DNA from: Candidatus Vogelbacteria bacterium
Lineage (GTDB): Bacteria > Patescibacteriota > Minisyncoccia > Phycocordibacterales > XYD1-FULL-46-19
Assembly: GCA_903864935.1 (NCBI GenBank)
Contig: CAIPHT010000006.1
Coordinates: forward strand, 37,129-101,128
Reading direction: 5' to 3'
Length of the DNA stretch: 64,000 nt
Part shown: positions 36,975-46,162 of the stretch, in pieces
Layout of the letters: each line of letters starts with the position of its first letter
Position numbering within the stretch: position 1 is the stretch's first letter
Translations under genes and position numbers: made by a program
Notes under the pieces: generated by a model
What the model was told of the DNA's origin: nothing
The model's input: only the letters and a program-made list of their open reading frames with translations
Database searches by the model: none

Positions 36975-37922
36975 CTAGCGATTTTTAAGGAATTTAACAA
37001 CAACCCGAGCCGCCTGCTCTAAGTGACTTTCGGACAACTGATCGACAGTATCGCCAGCACTATGATAAATCTCGTAAAGTTTCTTGAGATCAGCGCAAGC
37101 CACGAGAATCTTCTTCCGAAATTTCTTAATATTTTTTATCGGGAAACATTCGCTAACAAATTCTTCGTCGGTACTAAGTTTAGTCTCGCCATTACCCACG
37201 CAATCAATAACTAAAATTCTCTCGGCTTCCTTGAAGAGGCGCGGATGGCGCTTTTCTAAAATTCTGAAACCTCGGCCCCAATATTGTGGTCGGTCATAAG
37301 AAATTTCTTCATTACCGCTAAAAATAAACAAGCAATTTTCTAATAACTCCTGATGGTTAATAATTACTCCCATCATAGTAGACACACCCGAGGCATTGTC
37401 GGTCGCCCCGGTCTCGAGACAATCATAATGAGCAAAAACTAAATACTGGGGATTATTCTTATTCCCAACCAAGATATTCTTAGACAAGAAGCCTGTTCGC
37501 TCGACGTCAATCGAGCCCTCAATCTCTTCGCCTGACATTAATTGAACCAAATCTTTTTTATTTATCGCCAAAGAAGGGAAGTGATAATGTTGGGCCAAGG
37601 AGAGGTCGTCGGACTTAGGATTAAAATTAATATTCGCTCCACCCTCATAATCAAGCAGAGAATTTATGACCTTCGATTTCCTAGTAATCTTACCGTCAAC
37701 AAAAGAGGTCGGACGACAATCAATTTCTTTATCATCTACCACAAGACAGGTCTTAATATTCTTAGGATATGAGGTGTGGAATTTCTCAACAATAAAAGGT
37801 ATCCCTTGTTCCTTCAGATAAGCTTCGAGAAACTTCGCCGTCTTTTGTTCGTTCTTACCCAGTCGCGGAGAAAACTTTATTAATTCCTTAACAAAGTGGA
37901 GATAGAAGTCTTTGTTTGACAT
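36975..37922 (-). CDS. M28 family metallopeptidase
   Basis: AHYD, GATDNASG, GNEE, IDCVG, YHSAGDT. Confidence 0.88.
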   Translation of the reverse strand: MSNKDFYLHFVKELIKFSPRLGKNEQKTAKFLEAYLKEQGIPFIVEKFHTSYPKNIKTCLVVDDKEIDCRPTSFVDGKITRKSKVINSLLDYEGGANINFNPKSDDLSLAQHYHFPSLAINKKDLVQLMSGEEIEGSIDVERTGFLSKNILVGNKNNPQYLVFAHYDCLETGATDNASGVSTMMGVIINHQELLENCLFIFSGNEEISYDRPQYWGRGFRILEKRHPRLFKEAERILVIDCVGNGETKLSTDEEFVSECFPIKNIKKFRKKILVACADLKKLYEIYHSAGDTVDQLSESHLEQAARVVVKFLKNR

Positions 37923-38653: not shown

Positions 38654-39832
38654 ATGACCATTGAAGATCTATATACTCCGCTAGAGGAGGCAAAGAAAGA
38701 AATACGTAGACGTTGGGCCGACAAAGATTTAGAAAAAAAAGTGGCCAAATTTTTAAAAGGGAATATTCCCGATGTTTTTTTGCATGAACCACTCGCTATC
38801 TCCACGACTCACGTCGCCACGCCCAATTGGGCGCTCTTAGAATTCAGAAAGGAGGCGCAAGAGATTGGTCTTAAACCATTAATTTTTGAATACCTAGAAG
38901 ATGCCTTTATCACCACCAACTTCGACAAGGCCTCACTCGCGCGAATGGTCTTCTATCACGGGCGTGATGATCATGGCGATATGATGACGACCAGTCGCCA
39001 TGTTATCGACCTTACTGGCAAAGAGGAGAAGAAGAAGATCAAAGACATCGAGACACTCTGGGGAAGCAACTTAGTTGAGTTTCATCATGGCGTCTTCATG
39101 TCTTATTGCCCGGGCGTCGACGTGACCGACGGCTCCAGTTTCTACAAGGCGATGGGCAATTGCGCCAAAGAATATTATCCTTATATCCTCGCTCTCTATA
39201 TTAGAAACGGTGTTCTCTTCGAGAATTATATTGCCAACCGACACGAACAAAAATTCCTCGACGAAATTCTCTTTCCCGCTTTTGAAATCGTCCAAAAAGA
39301 ATTCGGCCTCAAACCTCTGATTGTAACCATCGCGCCCCAGAATGAAGCCGATAATAAATATTGGTGGTGTTATCCCGAATTTATTAAAACTCTAATTCCT
39401 AAGAACAAAGAGGAGGAGGAACGAGAGACTGTCCACAATGTCAACAAAGCCAGTGGCCTAAGTGTCGAGGAGCTCAAGGAATTAATGAGCAAGTGGCAAG
39501 TTAAACTCAAGATGGAGGATTGGAATCTCTCGCTCGAGATTGTGAAATTCTATCGCAAAAATGGTTACCATCAGAGCGGCGACTTTATTGCTGATCCGCT
39601 TAAAAAAGAAGCGATTATCCTCCTCACTCACAATCCTTGGCGCGGCGATGAAGAATATACCTTGGTGCATGAGATGCTCCACGTTCTTCTCTATGATTAT
39701 GATAAATATAGCGAAGATTTAATTTTGAAAAATTTCCAAAAATCCAGCCTCGAACACGACGCCTATATGGAGAAACTAGAGGAGACCACTCACAACCTCA
39801 CAAGGATAATTCTGGGGAGGAGTGATAGATAA
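38654..39832 (+). CDS. Uncharacterised ~250-aa domain fused to an HExxH zincin-like domain
   Basis: N-domain has HVATPN, FHHG, LFENY, FGLKPLIV; charged linker; C-domain has TLVHEMLH. Confidence 0.7.
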   Translation: MTIEDLYTPLEEAKKEIRRRWADKDLEKKVAKFLKGNIPDVFLHEPLAISTTHVATPNWALLEFRKEAQEIGLKPLIFEYLEDAFITTNFDKASLARMVFYHGRDDHGDMMTTSRHVIDLTGKEEKKKIKDIETLWGSNLVEFHHGVFMSYCPGVDVTDGSSFYKAMGNCAKEYYPYILALYIRNGVLFENYIANRHEQKFLDEILFPAFEIVQKEFGLKPLIVTIAPQNEADNKYWWCYPEFIKTLIPKNKEEEERETVHNVNKASGLSVEELKELMSKWQVKLKMEDWNLSLEIVKFYRKNGYHQSGDFIADPLKKEAIILLTHNPWRGDEEYTLVHEMLHVLLYDYDKYSEDLILKNFQKSSLEHDAYMEKLEETTHNLTRIILGRSDR

Positions 39833-40212: not shown

Positions 40213-40330
40213 AGAAATTAAACTTTTGACTTTCTAAAAATCAAAAGGGGGTCGGACCGAAGTCCAACCCCCTTATTTGGGATAACTTTCCTGTTTGAGA
40301 GGAATCATGAGCTGTCCTCCGAGAGCGCGG

Positions 40331-41560
40331 CTAAATGCCTCGTTGGGCGCGGTAAGCCACAAAGGCCTCTTCTCCGTATGGGTCCGGTTTGGTAACATCA
40401 CCGCAAAAGATGTGTGATCGCGCCTGACAACCACGTAGGCCGTTCCGACGGAACTCGGTGAAGACCGGATGATTTCTCCATGTCTCGACAAAGTTTTCGT
40501 CGAAGAGGGGCAACTCGTCACCTTTGTAGTAACCAGAGAAAAGCAGTGACGGGCAGGGCAGCATCCGGCCGCCAGCGTCAATGACCACTCCCGACTGAGC
40601 CGCTCGGCATTCATTGCGGGGCGCTAATCCCAGAAGCTGAGAGATAATCGCCGAATTGGAGAGACCGACATCGTAGTTACCATCGACTCTCTTGTGAAAG
40701 AGGTCGACGATTGACTCGAAGAAGGCTTCCGGAGTTGGTGTCAACTCTTGATGGGCGGGTCGGAACGGCTTAAACAGGCTGAAGTTGCAAGGGATGCCGA
40801 TTCCGCGACCGTAGTCGAGGACGGCCTGATACCGGCCGATGTTAGTAGCCATCAGGGTGAAGATGAGCTCCACCCGGATTCCGGCCTCGACCATTTTCCG
40901 AATGGCCCAGTCTGCCTTGGCGAAAACTCCGGCACCGCGATTTGCGTCGTGGTCTCCGTTCAGCCCTTCCAGGCTGACAAACATCGCCAGATTTCTCATC
41001 GCTGCCAATTCCTGGATCATCTCTTCGTTCAGCAGTGTGCCGTTGGTGACAATGTTCACGGCAAACTCATGGTGAGCGCAAAGCCGGAGAATTGAACGAA
41101 TATCAGGGTGAACGAATGGCTCACCGCCGATAACGCTAACCTCGAACACTCCGGTTTTGGCCAGGATGTTGAGCGCCTTCTCGACTTCGGCGAAGGGCAT
41201 CTGATACCCGTAGCCGTCTTGCAGACAGTGTAGGCAGTGCAGATTGCACTTTCCGGTAATCCCGAGCTCCACACCCCAAGGGAAAGGAGTCTGGATCTGC
41301 GGCGTGACGTTGAAGACCTCCGGCGACAGCTCCACTTCTACGCTGAACAGGAAAGCTTTCGTGTCGGCCTTAACCTGTTCAAGTGGCAACTGATACTCCG
41401 TGGCCAATTCTTGAACAATCTGCTCAACGCCTTGTCCTTGGTTGAGCATCTTGTCCAGGATCATTCTTCCGGTTTGGTTCACTCCAATGACCCGCCGCGA
41501 ATCAATGAAGTAAGCCCAACTTTCCCCGTTCTTTCCGGGACTGAATCTTACTTTCGTCAT
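40331..41560 (-). CDS. PqqD/RRE-fused radical SAM SPASM/twitch-type peptide maturase
   Basis: N-terminal RRE-like VNQTGRMIL...IVQELATEY...VKADTKAFL; CNLHCLHC; GGEP; CRAA...IDAGGRMLPC...GCQAR. ATG at 41560 after SD AGGAG. Confidence 0.88.
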   Translation of the reverse strand: MTKVRFSPGKNGESWAYFIDSRRVIGVNQTGRMILDKMLNQGQGVEQIVQELATEYQLPLEQVKADTKAFLFSVEVELSPEVFNVTPQIQTPFPWGVELGITGKCNLHCLHCLQDGYGYQMPFAEVEKALNILAKTGVFEVSVIGGEPFVHPDIRSILRLCAHHEFAVNIVTNGTLLNEEMIQELAAMRNLAMFVSLEGLNGDHDANRGAGVFAKADWAIRKMVEAGIRVELIFTLMATNIGRYQAVLDYGRGIGIPCNFSLFKPFRPAHQELTPTPEAFFESIVDLFHKRVDGNYDVGLSNSAIISQLLGLAPRNECRAAQSGVVIDAGGRMLPCPSLLFSGYYKGDELPLFDENFVETWRNHPVFTEFRRNGLRGCQARSHIFCGDVTKPDPYGEEAFVAYRAQRGI

Positions 41561-41585
41561 GTTGGCTTCTCCTGTTGAAATGGGC

Positions 41586-41630
41586 GGTCCGAGAGGAGGG
41601 GATAACACGAGTTAATCCTCCTCCCGGACC
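41586..41630 (-). promoter_or_regulatory. Stem-loop between precursor and maturase
   Basis: ggtccgagaggagg...cctcctcccggacc with no U-tract. Confidence 0.65.
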
Positions 41631-41638
41631 ACGAATCA

Positions 41639-41815
41639 TCAGAGCTGGGACGCGGCGACCGCTACCTCCTGGGCAACGGGCGTTTGGTTCCTCGGCGTGT
41701 GCGTCGGTCCGGGGGACCCACCACAGCTTTGCAGGCAACAGCCCGCTTCCACCGGCTCGGGGTTCGCCCCCTTGCAGGTGACTTCCGGCTTCTGGTACTG
41801 CTTGTGCTTGTCCAT
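41639..41815 (-). CDS. Putative RiPP precursor peptide, 58 aa (not in ORF track)
   Basis: MDKHKQYQKPEVTCKGANPEPVEAGCCLQSCGGSPGPTHTPRNQTPVAQEVAVAASQL. SD GAAAGGAG, YxxP leader motif, CCxxxCGG core. Confidence 0.75.
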   Translation of the reverse strand: MDKHKQYQKPEVTCKGANPEPVEAGCCLQSCGGSPGPTHTPRNQTPVAQEVAVAASQL

Positions 41816-42054
41816 AGGTATCTCACTCCTTTCAAAGGACAGTTGTGACCCAAAACAATATTGGGTACATCTATTTTTACGCTACCATAATTTTTATATC
41901 TTGTAAACAGGCCCTAGACTATAATACTATTTAGTTTTATAGTATTTACATTACCATCATTTAGAGTAGAATCACTTTAGAGTGTTCTTCGTAAATGCTA
42001 TAATTCTAAGCACTTAACCCCCCATAAACCATGGGAGAAAGGAGATAGACGGCC

Positions 42055-43734
42055 ATGTTAAAAGTCAAGAACATCAGCAAAAGCTACGGTACTAAAGTCG
42101 TTTTCTCCGACGTCTCCTTTGGTTTGGAGAAGGGTCAAAGAGCGGCTTTGGTTGGTAGCAACGGAGTGGGGAAAACAACCCTACTCAAGATTGTCGCGGG
42201 GCTAGACGAAACAGAGACGGGCCAAGTAGAAATTAGCCGGGGCACCTGCCTGGGCTATATGCCTCAAGATACCAGCCTGACTGGACCTGAGACAATTTGG
42301 CAATATCTGCAACGAGTGACCGGCATCGCTTCGCTTGAAAAAGAGCTGGGCGAACTGGAAGCGGCTGACCTAAGCGACAAAACGATGAGCGATCGTTACG
42401 CCAGTGTCCGCGAGCGTTATGACCATCTTGATGGCTACACGCTCAAGCATCGAGCCGAAGTGATGATGTCTGGTTTCAGTATGGACGATGTTGGGCTGGA
42501 TCGGCCGTTATCCGATCTGTCCAGTGGCCAAAAGAGCAAAGTTGCTCTGATTGGCATCCTGCTGGCCGGTATTGATCTACTTCTGCTTGATGAGCCGACG
42601 AATAACTTGGATTTACCGGCCCTGATCTGGCTGGAAGATTACCTGTTGAAGTCTGAAGCGGCGTGCATCATTGTCTCGCACGATCGACGTTTTCTTGACA
42701 GAGTTGCCGACCGAGTCTTTGAGTTGAATCGACAGACCCACTCGCTCAATGTGAGCAACGGGTCATACAGCGAGTACCTTGCCCGTAAGCTGAAAGATCG
42801 GGTCCAGCAGAAAGAGCAGTATCGTCAACAACAGGAAGAGATCGGGCGCTTGACCGAACAGGCGAGAGAGAAGAAAGCCTCCGCCTTGCGTGGTTCGAGT
42901 TGGCAAGGAAGTGACAGTGACAAGTACCTTCGGGGATTTAAACGAGACCGAGCCTCAAAGTCAGGGAAGGTTGCCAAAGTTCTTGAGAAGAGGATTGATC
43001 AAATGGACAAGATCGATCGACCAATCGAACGTGAGCCACTCTCCATCTCACTTGAGGCTGAGAGCAATGGTCGTCCTCTGGATATCTCGCTCGACAATGT
43101 CGTCACTGGGTACCCTGGCCAATTTGAGTTAGGACCAATAAGCTTTGCTATTGGTTATGGCAATCGCATTGGGTTCCTCGGCCTTAACGGCAGTGGCAAG
43201 TCAACGCTCCTGAAAACAATCACTGGTCAACTTCCCGCCATCTCGGGCCAAGTGTCCCTTGGCTATGGTCTCAAGATTGGCAATATGATGCAGGAGCACG
43301 AGACTCTTCCTCGCGAAGAGACTCTGCTCAACTTCATCAAAGATCAAACTGGCCAACCTGACCAAGACGTCTTCTCTACCCTCGTGAAGTTTGGTTTCGG
43401 AGAGAAAGACATTCGGGGCAAGATCTCCGAGATCAGTCCCGGTGGTCGCGCTCGTCTTCTGCTGAGCTTGTTTTCCCTGCTGTCCGTTAACGCTCTGGTC
43501 CTCGATGAGCCCACCAATCATCTTGATGCCGAAGCAGTGGACGCGTTGGAAGAAGTCTTGGCCAGCTACAAGGGAACCGTGATTCTGGTCTCTCATGATC
43601 GTGATTTCCTTGAGAAAGCCAAGATCGACTCTGCCTACCTCATTACCGACGGACAATTGACCAAGGTGGACGACTTCCACGAATATGTCACCATGGCTGA
43701 ACAGAAAGCGAGAAAATTGCTTAGAACTATTTAA
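42055..43734 (+). CDS. ABC-F family ribosome-associated ATPase
   Basis: Two ABC domains (GSNGVGKT, GLNGSGKST, LDEPTN twice, VSHDR twice) and no TM. Confidence 0.93.
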   Translation: MLKVKNISKSYGTKVVFSDVSFGLEKGQRAALVGSNGVGKTTLLKIVAGLDETETGQVEISRGTCLGYMPQDTSLTGPETIWQYLQRVTGIASLEKELGELEAADLSDKTMSDRYASVRERYDHLDGYTLKHRAEVMMSGFSMDDVGLDRPLSDLSSGQKSKVALIGILLAGIDLLLLDEPTNNLDLPALIWLEDYLLKSEAACIIVSHDRRFLDRVADRVFELNRQTHSLNVSNGSYSEYLARKLKDRVQQKEQYRQQQEEIGRLTEQAREKKASALRGSSWQGSDSDKYLRGFKRDRASKSGKVAKVLEKRIDQMDKIDRPIEREPLSISLEAESNGRPLDISLDNVVTGYPGQFELGPISFAIGYGNRIGFLGLNGSGKSTLLKTITGQLPAISGQVSLGYGLKIGNMMQEHETLPREETLLNFIKDQTGQPDQDVFSTLVKFGFGEKDIRGKISEISPGGRARLLLSLFSLLSVNALVLDEPTNHLDAEAVDALEEVLASYKGTVILVSHDRDFLEKAKIDSAYLITDGQLTKVDDFHEYVTMAEQKARKLLRTI

Positions 43735-43819: not shown

Positions 43820-44377
43820 ATGGGTGCAAAGTTTAAAATTCAAGACACAGGTAAGTACGGTTTAGGAGTTTTTGCTGATGAAGATATTAAAAAAGGGGAG
43901 ACGATAAAAGTTTTTGATGGTGAAGTAATTGATTTTGCCGAGACCGAGGAGAGAATAAAAGAGGGGAGCGAGAACAGAACAGATACCTTTCAGGTCGGTT
44001 TAGAATTAGATATGGACCTCGATGAAGAATCTCGATCATTCAACCATAGTTGCAACCCTAATGCCGGATTCAGAGGAATAAGCGAACTTATCGCCATTAG
44101 GGATATCAAGAAGGGCGAAGAGATGACTTATGATTACTCGGCCACAGTTGGCCCAAACGTCCCCGCTTCTCTCTGGGAGATGTCTTGTGATTGCGGAGCA
44201 ACCAATTGCCGTAAGATTATTGGCAATGTCCTCACTATCCCCAAAGAACAACTTAATAAATACCGTCAAGCCGGAGCACTCCAAGACTACATACTAAAAG
44301 AACTCGATATTATAGAAAAAAATAACGGGATTTCCCCTAAATACAAACCAATCCCAGGTCACGAAGAATTATCATAA
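43820..44377 (+). CDS. SET domain protein-lysine methyltransferase-like protein
   Basis: GLGVFA, FNHSCNPN, EEMTYDY, post-SET CDCGATNCR. Confidence 0.9.
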   Translation: MGAKFKIQDTGKYGLGVFADEDIKKGETIKVFDGEVIDFAETEERIKEGSENRTDTFQVGLELDMDLDEESRSFNHSCNPNAGFRGISELIAIRDIKKGEEMTYDYSATVGPNVPASLWEMSCDCGATNCRKIIGNVLTIPKEQLNKYRQAGALQDYILKELDIIEKNNGISPKYKPIPGHEELS

Positions 44378-44392
44378 TCAACAAATATTATC

Positions 44393-46162
44393 GTGAGTGA
44401 AAATCTAGTTACAAATATTGGGCATTGTCTAACTTCAGCTTCCGAAATGGTTGGGGGCAACATGAGTCTTGTTTATTATTCTCATATCCCCACCGCTATC
44501 ATTACACTACTAATGGGCTTTTTTGTTCTCCGAGCCGGCAAAAACAGTTTGTCTTCGAAAATTTTGTTTGCTTTTTGCTTAACTTTCTCGATTTATATTT
44601 TTGCCAATCTTATGTCGTGGATTGGGACAAGTAGTGTCTGGATTACTTTCTTCTGGTCACTTCTCGGCTTAACGGATATCCTCTTTTATCTTCTTGGATT
44701 ATACTTTTTCTATGTCTTCGTTGACGGCAAAGACATCAGCTTCCGTCTCAAATTGGTCTTGGTGGCTATCTTCGTCCCATTTTTAATAATGTCCCCCACA
44801 CGCTTGAATATCCCCGGTTTTGACTATATTAATTGCACAGCCCTGGACACTAATTTCTTAAACTATTTATTTTATGCCAAGATATTCATTGCCATATGGT
44901 TGGCAATTTTAGCTATTTATAAATATTTAAAAGCCAAGAGCGAAGACCGTCAGCGCATTGTCATTCTTTCTCTCGGCCTTGGTCTCTTCTTGTTCTCTTT
45001 TTTTGCAACCAGTTATCTTTCTGATATTTATCAAAGATACGACATCGAACTCTACGGTCTCTACGCCATGACGGCCTTTATGGGTATCTTGGCTTACCTG
45101 ATTGTTAAATTTAAAGCTTTTAACATCAAGCTTATCGGCTCGCAAGCTCTCGTCTATGCCTTAATTATCCTGATTGGGTCACAATTCTTCTTTATCAAAA
45201 CAACCATCAATATGTTCCTGACCGGCATAACTTTTGTTATGGCCCTCATCTTCGGCGGACTCTTAATCCGTAGTGTGCAACGTGAAGTGACCCAGCGCGA
45301 AGAAATTGAGAAATTGGCCGAGAACTTGGCCAAATCTAACGACAGCCTCTATGTCGCTAATGAGAAATTGAAGGAACTCGATCGCCAGAAGACGGAGTTC
45401 GTCTCGATTGCTTCCCATCAACTCCGAAGCCCTCTCACCGCCATCAAGGGTTATTCGTCAATGCTCTTAGAAGGTTCTTTTGGTCCCGTTGAAGACAAGG
45501 CCAAGGGAGCGATTGATGTTATCTACCAATCTAGTCAACGTCTGATGACCGTGATCGAAGACTTCTTGAACATCACCCGTATCGAACTCGGCCGAATGAA
45601 GTATGAGTTATCCGTCTTTGACCTTGGTCAGATTGCTCAGACTGTTATTAAAAATCAGGAACCCAACGTATTAAAAAGAGGGCTTAAAATTGAATTCGTT
45701 GATGGCACTAATAATCATCAAATTTCGGCTGATAGCGGTAAAGTCACTCAGGTGGTCTCTAATATTGTTGACAATAGTATCAAATACACGCCAAGTGGCT
45801 GGATCAAGGTTAGTGTAGAAAACAGGCCGATGGGCAAAAGCAAATCTAAAGAAACAGTACGCTTAACCGTCTCAGACAGTGGGGTGGGTATCAACAAAGA
45901 AACCCTGCCCAAACTCTTCGATAAGTTTGTGCGCGCTGATGATGCGGGCAAAACAAATATCTCGGGTACAGGTCTTGGTCTCTATGTTGCCAAGCAAATT
46001 GTGGAGGGCTTAGGTGGCAAAATCTGGGCCGAATCCGAAGGCAAGGGTAAGGGTGCTCAGTTTATTGTTGAATTCCCGCGTTCGACCGGCGAAGTCACCC
46101 AATCCAAAAGCAAAATTGAGTCTTACACCAAAGCGGACCTTGATAAACTGAAGAAAAAATAG
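44393..46162 (+). CDS. Membrane sensor histidine kinase (multi-TM N-terminus)
   Basis: H-box SHQLRSPL, N-box NSIKYT, DSGVG, GTGLGL; about 8 TMs. Confidence 0.95.
   Translation: MSENLVTNIGHCLTSASEMVGGNMSLVYYSHIPTAIITLLMGFFVLRAGKNSLSSKILFAFCLTFSIYIFANLMSWIGTSSVWITFFWSLLGLTDILFYLLGLYFFYVFVDGKDISFRLKLVLVAIFVPFLIMSPTRLNIPGFDYINCTALDTNFLNYLFYAKIFIAIWLAILAIYKYLKAKSEDRQRIVILSLGLGLFLFSFFATSYLSDIYQRYDIELYGLYAMTAFMGILAYLIVKFKAFNIKLIGSQALVYALIILIGSQFFFIKTTINMFLTGITFVMALIFGGLLIRSVQREVTQREEIEKLAENLAKSNDSLYVANEKLKELDRQKTEFVSIASHQLRSPLTAIKGYSSMLLEGSFGPVEDKAKGAIDVIYQSSQRLMTVIEDFLNITRIELGRMKYELSVFDLGQIAQTVIKNQEPNVLKRGLKIEFVDGTNNHQISADSGKVTQVVSNIVDNSIKYTPSGWIKVSVENRPMGKSKSKETVRLTVSDSGVGINKETLPKLFDKFVRADDAGKTNISGTGLGLYVAKQIVEGLGGKIWAESEGKGKGAQFIVEFPRSTGEVTQSKSKIESYTKADLDKLKKK

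Follow-up and report, generated by a model that had tools for sequence, protein, structure and literature searches.

A real, uncharacterised family of radical-SAM RiPPs with an unusual ribosome-factor partner is described here from a member found in Candidatus Vogelbacteria (assembly GCA_903864935.1, contig CAIPHT010000006.1). The stretch of DNA analysed, referred to below as the window, is 64,000 nucleotides long, and within it a gene for a 58-residue precursor peptide is followed by the gene for its maturase, with a divergent gene for an ABC-F ATPase starting 240 nt from the precursor. The features of the locus are as follows.

41826..41831, reverse strand: Shine-Dalgarno-like AAGGAG of the precursor (sequence match)
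41639..41815, reverse strand: precursor peptide gene, 58 aa (translation exactly as quoted in the original prediction)
41711..41749, reverse strand: conserved core codons E23 to P35 (codon-level conservation across the family)
41584..41632, reverse strand: stem of the hairpin between precursor and maturase (fold energy against shuffles)
40331..41560, reverse strand: maturase, 409 aa, with an RRE (residues 20-71), a radical SAM domain and a Twitch-like domain
40245..40274, reverse strand: hairpin resembling an intrinsic terminator at the end of the precursor-maturase operon (13 pairs and a T tail; consensus match only)
41945..42004, forward strand: sigma-70-like promoter matches 5′ of the ABC-F gene (consensus matches only)
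42055..43734, forward strand: ABC-F ATPase, 559 aa, divergent from the precursor, with two nucleotide-binding domains and no membrane domain

The original prediction, read from the letters of this DNA, had proposed a short reading frame led by a Shine-Dalgarno sequence upstream of the maturase, and both elements are present. The peptide consists of a leader carrying the motif YQKP (residues 7-10), a core (residues 23-35) and a helical follower (residues ~44-58). Throughout the family the core reads E-x-G-C-C-x-x-S-C-G-G-x-P, with E23, G25, C26, C27, S30, C31, G32, G33, and P35 invariant in 44 aligned precursors, an alignment that omits L022, the stop-interrupted L004, truncated copies and some near-duplicates. 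Among 50 distinct core sequences these invariant positions vary synonymously, even between the two Ser codon boxes, and such a number of synonymous codons indicates selection on the peptide. A chance reading frame was considered and rejected, given the linkage of the peptide to the maturase across the family and the codon-level conservation of the core. None of the 44 members has a convincing match to the Pfam and NCBIfam precursor models, including PqqA and MftA. The conserved cysteines are three in number and have no Asp or Glu at i+4. An atlas search with the precursor returned an unnamed best match of 0.87, which serves as a lead only.

The maturase most likely starts at the ATG at 41560, where its homologues begin. 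It had been announced as a PqqD/RRE, radical SAM and SPASM-like protein, and the first two parts of this description hold: Pfam recognizes PqqD at residues 20-71 (34.3 bits, cut-off 23.4) and Radical_SAM at residues 101-235 (71.7 bits), the CxxxCxxC motif being C105/C109/C112. The third does not, as SPASM scores 13.6 bits, below its cut-off of 21.5. Beyond the barrel, C318 (38/38), C336 (38/38), and C378 (37/38) are the only conserved cysteines of the C-terminal domain, which is thus Twitch-like rather than a full SPASM, and from their pattern the three likely hold one auxiliary cluster with an open site. One additional cysteine, C258, is invariant (38/38). No other reading frame of at least 150 aa in this 825-kb genome (98.8% complete) contains CxxxCxxC. 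By sequence the closest solved protein is SkfB (E 7.6e-29), a sactisynthase of RRE, radical SAM and Twitch type. The AlphaFold model (pLDDT 92) has SkfB (Z 29.4, rmsd 4.5, 341 residues aligned) and SuiB (Z 29.1, rmsd 4.3, 370 aligned) as its structural neighbours, effectively tied. Longer fused forms were absent among 3726 candidates, which is weak evidence.

The intergenic stem-loop seen in the original prediction is a strong one, folding at -40.7 kcal/mol (z -5.4) with none of 200 shuffles equally stable. Folds with z of -2 or lower occur in 30 of 40 intergenic regions of the family, and the hairpin likely sets a high ratio of precursor to enzyme. The block had also appeared richer in GC than its surroundings. 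Its values are 0.545 for the maturase, 0.661 for the precursor and 0.51 for the ABC-F gene, against a genome mean of 0.448 (sd 0.041, 366 long reading frames), and only 2.2% of those 366 frames reach the level of the maturase.

How far does the pair extend beyond this genome? A protein search with the maturase gave 40 matches at E ≤ 1e-20 among 3285 candidates (39-100% identity), and when 1.84 billion representatives were searched with a profile, some 13 full-length clusters scored above 390 bits before the scores dropped. The loci examined, 80 from genomes and 79 from metagenomes (the best 80 of 141 and the best 80 of 244 confirmed matches), were split into 85 family members and 74 unrelated radical-SAM loci used as controls. 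With the window, the 85 form 55 groups at 90% maturase identity and 32 at 70%. Homologous maturases had been proposed as the place to look for a similar upstream peptide, and they do possess one: a peptide with the core motif was found in all 48 assessable groups (the other 7 of the 55 being short of upstream sequence) and in none of 45 outgroup radical-SAM groups, using a pattern that was composed after viewing the matches and widened for L022, a single degenerate lineage whose core is missing two cysteines. Precursor and maturase almost certainly form a genuine pair.

A co-fold of the two proteins with SAM and two clusters, which extends the co-folding of RRE and leader proposed at the outset, scored 0.74 against 0.12 for the best control, with the conserved YxxP-like leader placed on the RRE. 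In calibration this mark is reached by 116 of 157 solved pairs and 2 of 215 mismatched pairs, but the present job included ligands, unlike the calibration, and structures of similar RRE-leader complexes exist already; likeness to them may account for the pass. The runs share at least 70% of contacts, with a partner pLDDT of 60-70. The best run places P10 and V12 of the leader on the RRE (residues 25-34 and 66-73), packs the follower helix 47-55 against the same domain, and has the peptide touch E140, S142, F194, E231, N259, and S261 of the barrel as well as the Twitch region, including C336 and C378. This model supports binding of the precursor by the maturase, and the predicted clamping of leader and follower on one RRE would be unusual.

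What the enzyme does to the bound core is suggested by comparison. Streptosactin has rings between Cys25 and Ser28 and between Cys31 and Gly34 (PMC8172795), that is, from Cys to i+3 (PMC9389541). By analogy, the present core may acquire alpha-thioethers from C27 to S30 and from C31 to position 34, for which unnested rings are the best fit. Position 34 accepts S, K, M, or V, whereas S30 is invariant, and tolerance at position 34 is expected of a backbone acceptor. The maturase probably makes thioether links to cysteine. Other chemistry, such as epimerisation, a C-C or C-O cross-link or an MftC-like decarboxylation, with the core cysteines serving disulfides or metal, seems quite improbable, even though several observations lean that way: the mycofactocin maturase is the top NCBIfam match, SuiB ties with SkfB by structure, and the residues near the active site, which by our own mapping read L/F-I-V-S-P-S, match none of the sactisynthases quoted in one survey, neither CteB (F-F-T-S-H-Q) nor StsB (Y-T-I-S-K-L) (PMC10288494). 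The invariant C258 could likewise be a hydrogen donor. Epimerases use a cysteine in that capacity. Against this, C258 lies outside the modelled interface, which takes in its close neighbours N259 and S261 (an absence that is weak evidence), the core has no conserved aromatic residue for a C-C link, and the putative three-cysteine cluster would leave an open site, as in thioether formers.

None of the known families tested accommodates the pair. Among the 25 best of the maturase's 72 NCBIfam matches, not one reaches its cut-off, with the mycofactocin maturase (TIGR03962) at 84 bits against 265 and subtilosin AlbA (NF012164) at 57.2 against 850. The expectation that SCIFF, PqqA, mycofactocin, and subtilosin would not match was correct, every NCBIfam and Pfam family tested excluding the pair. 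SkfB of the sporulation killing factor (Bacillus subtilis; PDB 6EFN) has the same RRE, radical SAM and Twitch architecture, but structural identity is 16%, the precursors differ, and skf encodes a protease and an exporter of its own, whereas the window's cassette has neither of these but has a follower and an ABC-F. The type 2 sactipeptides (streptosactin GggA/GggB, QmpB) share the short core with a cysteine three residues before a Ser/Gly-type acceptor. GggB, compared here by its description, carries a SPASM domain, is accompanied by a dedicated protease and has been likened to ranthisynthases, whereas the window's system differs from streptosactin in its Twitch-like domain, CC pair, long follower, and ABC-F. 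The SCIFF/PapB ranthipeptides have a full SPASM domain with a second auxiliary cluster, compared with only three auxiliary cysteines here, and their precursors carry six-Cys or CxxxD motifs. Mycofactocin depends on an MftA precursor, none of which was found by model search in the 44 members, and PQQ on PqqA with pqqB/C neighbours, none of which is conserved in the 86 family loci. The proposal of a new RiPP class stands in so far as the pair lies outside the families tested, but three of its precursors had already been listed: the supplement of Precord et al. (2023) contains peptides identical to those of L018, L089, and L016 as “Other Uncharacterized,” in SSN group 64 and one singleton (PMC10288494). 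That listing is a spreadsheet entry giving no class, chemistry or neighbourhood, and the family now comprises 55 groups with a link to ABC-F and Erm genes.

Clustering of neighbouring genes identifies the ABC-F as the dominant conserved partner. Of the 28 well-flanked groups, whose sequence extends at least 1.5 kb to either side, 24 have the ABC-F no more than 300 nt from the cassette, against none of 31 well-flanked control groups. Over all groups the count is 38/55, and at the 70% identity level 20/24. It follows the cassette in tandem in 14 groups and convergently in 9, precedes it divergently in 7 and in tandem in 5, and lies between precursor and maturase in 3. It is encoded on the other strand from the cassette in 16 of these 38 groups, the window's included, and is thus often not co-transcribed. 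An exporter role for this ABC protein was rejected, as it has no membrane domain. The original prediction rightly noted that no dedicated exporter is adjacent, but missed this conserved gene so close to the precursor. Four well-flanked groups are without an adjacent ABC-F, three with an intact core (L008, L096, and L131/L132) and the degenerate L022.

The partner resembles the antibiotic-resistance ABC-F proteins. Its linker is long, with the tip D-x-D-K-Y-x-R-G, and in all but one of the 34 partners that could be measured it spans 163-171 aa (167 in the window), against 147 aa in the genome's other ABC-F and 141 aa in YheS. In ARE1-5 the linkers are about 30 aa longer than in EttA, although not all AREs are extended (PMC6723617). 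With the ARE-ABCF proteins (VmlR, Msr, Vga, Lsa, TlrC/CarA/OleB) it has in common the two-domain, membrane-free form, the long linker and a patchy spread. It differs in keeping the Arm, in scoring below the named cut-offs, and in being paired with a peptide of ribosomal origin, not with a pathway for polyketides or lincosamides. It passes NF000355 (398.9 bits, cut-off 380), a broad “ribosomal protection-like” model also passed in 8 of 14 control genomes, while no cut-off of the named resistance families (Vga, Msr, Lsa, Sal, CplR, OptrA, TlrC/CarA) is reached, the best being 289 against 800. Self-protection of producers is known for ARE4 and ARE5 (PMC6723617).

A second kind of 50S-protection gene, for an Erm-type 23S methylase, occurs within two genes of the cassette in 7/55 groups (3/32 lineages). 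Of the seven tested, five score above the Erm cut-off (L009, L087, L089, L090, and L106), L014 falls just below it and L105 is truncated. For L099 the Erm-type assignment comes from a profile, the sequence being a fragment of 80 aa. In L009, L105, and L106/L128 the gene directly follows the maturase. Erm genes above the cut-off are present in 15 of 401 genomes of the phylum, the window's own genome having none. The methylase of L016 was set aside as KsgA.

Both gene kinds could also be ordinary resistance genes, directed at antibiotics of the environment, gathered at shared insertion hot spots and functionally unlinked to the peptide, a reading that fits the frequent solitary occurrence of the ABC-F clade (G298, G389, G376, and G396), its variable orientation, and the 1 in 20 background Erm loci that have an ABC-F alongside and no peptide genes. 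We consider this very unlikely, since adjacency within 300 nt persists through five arrangements, including insertion between the two genes (3 groups), holds in Firmicutes, Actinomycetota and an archaeal-labelled record, and is absent from all 31 control loci, and since the trees are congruent. In 34 pairs, the ABC-F (FastTree) and maturase trees have 17 of 31 splits in common (shuffled mean 0.2, maximum 2) and the distances correlate (Mantel rho 0.62), a congruence partly expected from kinship alone. The partner ABC-Fs are not monophyletic, with 12 label changes on the tree.

The same clade of ABC-F (at least 470 bits) is found in 12 of the 401 phylum genomes, two of them with the window-type cassette. 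Three more (G324, G075, and G086) carry it with an unrelated Cys-rich precursor and radical-SAM enzyme: the precursor has L-C-x4/5-C-C-P and a folded-looking tail, the enzyme is 21% identical to the window's maturase, and two of the three have a phosphorylase too. In G324, of the same genus, the ABC-F is last in the operon and its DNA is 78% identical to the window's. A profile of these three precursors found no further copy in the 401 genomes. In the remaining 7/12, of which one has it on a 3.5-kb contig, the ABC-F has no peptide/radical-SAM pair next to it. The clade is therefore repeatedly tied to Cys-peptide cassettes and is not exclusive to the window's family.

This recurrence with two unrelated peptides would also suit a more generic function, in which the ABC-F assists biosynthesis or acts as a sensor: it would free ribosomes stalled on the precursor, or couple expression of the cassette to the state of the ribosome, and the modified peptide's role would be non-ribosomal. 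The precursor is rich in Pro, Cys, and Gly or basic, a proposed cause of stalling, and there is no exporter. Even with no antibiotic present, housekeeping ABC-Fs come to the rescue when a peptide is hard to translate, and those of E. coli each relieve stalling at specific nascent sequences, with the linker setting specificity (PMC11162784). Yet such a helper leaves the Erm neighbours unaccounted for, the genome already has a second, short-linker ABC-F whereas the partner's linker is long and of resistance type, and three intact cassettes do without one. We regard this explanation as unlikely, though worth keeping in view.

The family loci share neither an exporter nor a peptidase. The peptidases vary, with DUF2268 (L012, L084, L096, and L097), M16 (L005, L111, L120, and L129), M3 (L008), and M28 (the window). 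The M28 and HExxH peptidases had been pointed to as possible parts of the system, and neither survives: no homologue of the M28 gene (36975-37922) is present in any of the 85 remaining loci of the family, and the HExxH-bearing frame of 392 aa (38654-39832) is not a conserved part, its homologues in three other loci measuring 277-279 aa, too short for the HExxH tail. An atlas search with this 392-aa neighbour gave no usable match.

The distribution is wide and sparse. Among 23 genome-collection loci, labelled as deposited, 14 are Patescibacteria, 2 unclassified, 2 Gammaproteobacteria and one each Methanosarcinales, Woesearchaeota, Eggerthellaceae, Clostridiales, and Clostridium. The placement in a CPR lineage thus describes most records but not all. 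The cassette is present in 2 of 401 phylum genomes and in none of 60 relatives, 8 of which are of the same genus. No family member was detected in at least 44 screened viral loci (best E 1e-17, short matches) or among PLSDB plasmids at E 1e-30. A sporadic, GC-atypical cassette looks more like a mobile trait for competition than like a part of core physiology, which tells against the modified peptide being an intracellular regulator that parks the cell's own ribosomes, for example in dormancy between hosts, with the ABC-F releasing them. An Erm would moreover block such regulation permanently. The absent exporter and the tightly linked ABC-F agree with the idea nonetheless, and for streptosactin, tryglysin, and epipeptide the organism inhibited is mainly the producer itself (PMC9389541). 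On balance it appears improbable.

The best explanation, which we hold tentatively and somewhat on the side of doubt, is a thioether RiPP that acts on the 50S ribosome, with the ABC-F as self-protection. Its central element, a ribosomal target with the ABC-F as protection, comes close to an even call. The RRE/radical-SAM/Twitch enzyme would grip the 58-aa peptide by leader and follower on the RRE, as in the co-fold, with the core in the barrel beside C336 and C378. If SkfB and streptosactin are a guide, a 5′-deoxyadenosyl radical would then take an alpha-hydrogen, the peptide cysteine might bind the open iron of the three-cysteine cluster, and unnested rings from i to i+3 (C27-S30 and C31-S34) could yield a small bicyclic peptide. 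Judging by the neighbouring genes, the core may be trimmed by non-dedicated metallopeptidases, the bicyclic peptide might jam the 50S ribosome, and the ABC-F (sometimes Erm) would shield the producer's own ribosomes. The presence beside the cassette of two independent kinds of 50S-protection gene suggests the peptidyl-transferase centre or the exit tunnel as the target, and the core-degenerate L022 group, which also lacks the ABC-F, counts in favour. On the other side stand the intact-core groups without an ABC-F, the 7/12 clade genomes without an adjacent pair together with the non-monophyletic partners, and SuiB, a C-C cross-linker as near structurally as SkfB. The family loci also lack an exporter and share no peptidase, so this reading does not explain how the peptide would reach a target cell. 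Klebsazolicin, phazolicin, and bottromycin have the kind of target proposed here, but are YcaO/azole products, with bottromycin having a follower peptide in common with the window's precursor.

A literature search that lay mostly outside subscription journals returned no description of the family, of its core motif or of an ABC-F-linked radical-SAM RiPP. ABC-F genes are mentioned in lasso-peptide clusters. In the accessible text of a 2020 review of translation-targeting RiPPs, neither “ABC” nor “radical SAM” occurs (PMC7136475).

The furthest-reaching form of the preferred reading is that CPR bacteria make a thioether peptide that inhibits the 50S ribosomes of their hosts or competitors behind a dedicated ABC-F shield, forming a class of sactipeptides aimed at the ribosome, and that the ABC-F clade marks several unrelated peptide antibiotics, the product of the second Cys-peptide/radical-SAM cassette among them. 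This is a doubtful proposition at present. If it were true, bacteria usually deemed biosynthetically bare would own a ribosome-aimed chemical weapon or regulator, the ribosome would be added to the targets of radical-SAM thioether peptides, and a neighbouring ABC-F would serve, as a sign of self-resistance, to guide mining for new translation inhibitors. Even if the ABC-F were a helper, it would be tied to RiPP biosynthesis, in an easily testable system of two proteins and one peptide.

The cassette of the window, which comprises the 58-aa Cys precursor, the 409-aa RRE/radical SAM maturase and the gene for an ABC-F ATPase, lies between the following genes:

Genes flanking the cassette
window 38654-39832 and 43820-46162: an unknown ORF of 392 aa with HExxH in its tail, a gene with a SET domain, and a histidine kinase of the membrane type

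Since homologues of all three also flank the cassette in the relatives L090/L091, these cassettes appear to belong to a common larger island.

Within the maturase, C258 (window about 40787-40789) is an additional invariant cysteine, located in a CNFxLFKP strand (38/38). At four loci (L018, L125-L127) the enzyme is in two pieces, a 94-aa RRE ORF and a 292-aa remainder, while the near-identical L124 has it unsplit; the split is a frameshift or an assembly error. The precursor also varies. In L022 (7779-7931), as well as L114-L116 and L123, it is degenerate, with two of the three core cysteines, the serine and the proline gone; the maturase is of intact length there, and the ABC-F gene does not adjoin. 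In L004 (7779-7781), and likewise L086, an in-frame TAG falls within the leader where relatives have Glu, the remaining cassette being intact in appearance. A full three-gene cassette is also found in a record labelled Woesearchaeota (L019 1052-4167); PMC6723617 reports almost all archaea to be without ABC-Fs.

The same ABC-F clade (relatives of the window's ABC-F, 470 bits or more) is used by a second cassette, unrelated to the main one:

Second cassettes paired with the ABC-F clade
L236 7649-11949: second cassette, genome G324
L238 5742-11492: second cassette, genome G075
L245 6890-10835: second cassette, genome G086

Its 58-64-aa precursor, for which no Pfam family was found, carries the motif L-C-x4/5-C-C-P and a conserved tail, and its radical SAM enzyme differs from the main-cassette maturase. 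A phosphorylase-family gene is present in G324 and G075, the latter with an extra gene that is likely a B12-type radical SAM, while G086 has a TrpD-like gene.

At L016 (11849-14738), 1 kb from the main cassette, there is a second radical SAM gene, which is RRE-less; ahead of it come a basic ORF of 28 aa with Cys and Trp and a gene of GNAT-like type, and after it another ABC-F. Finally, in genome G266 (L247 929-5256), a more distant ABC-F closes a run of YcaO, nitroreductase (SagB-like) and C39-like peptidase genes, another RiPP-like cluster.
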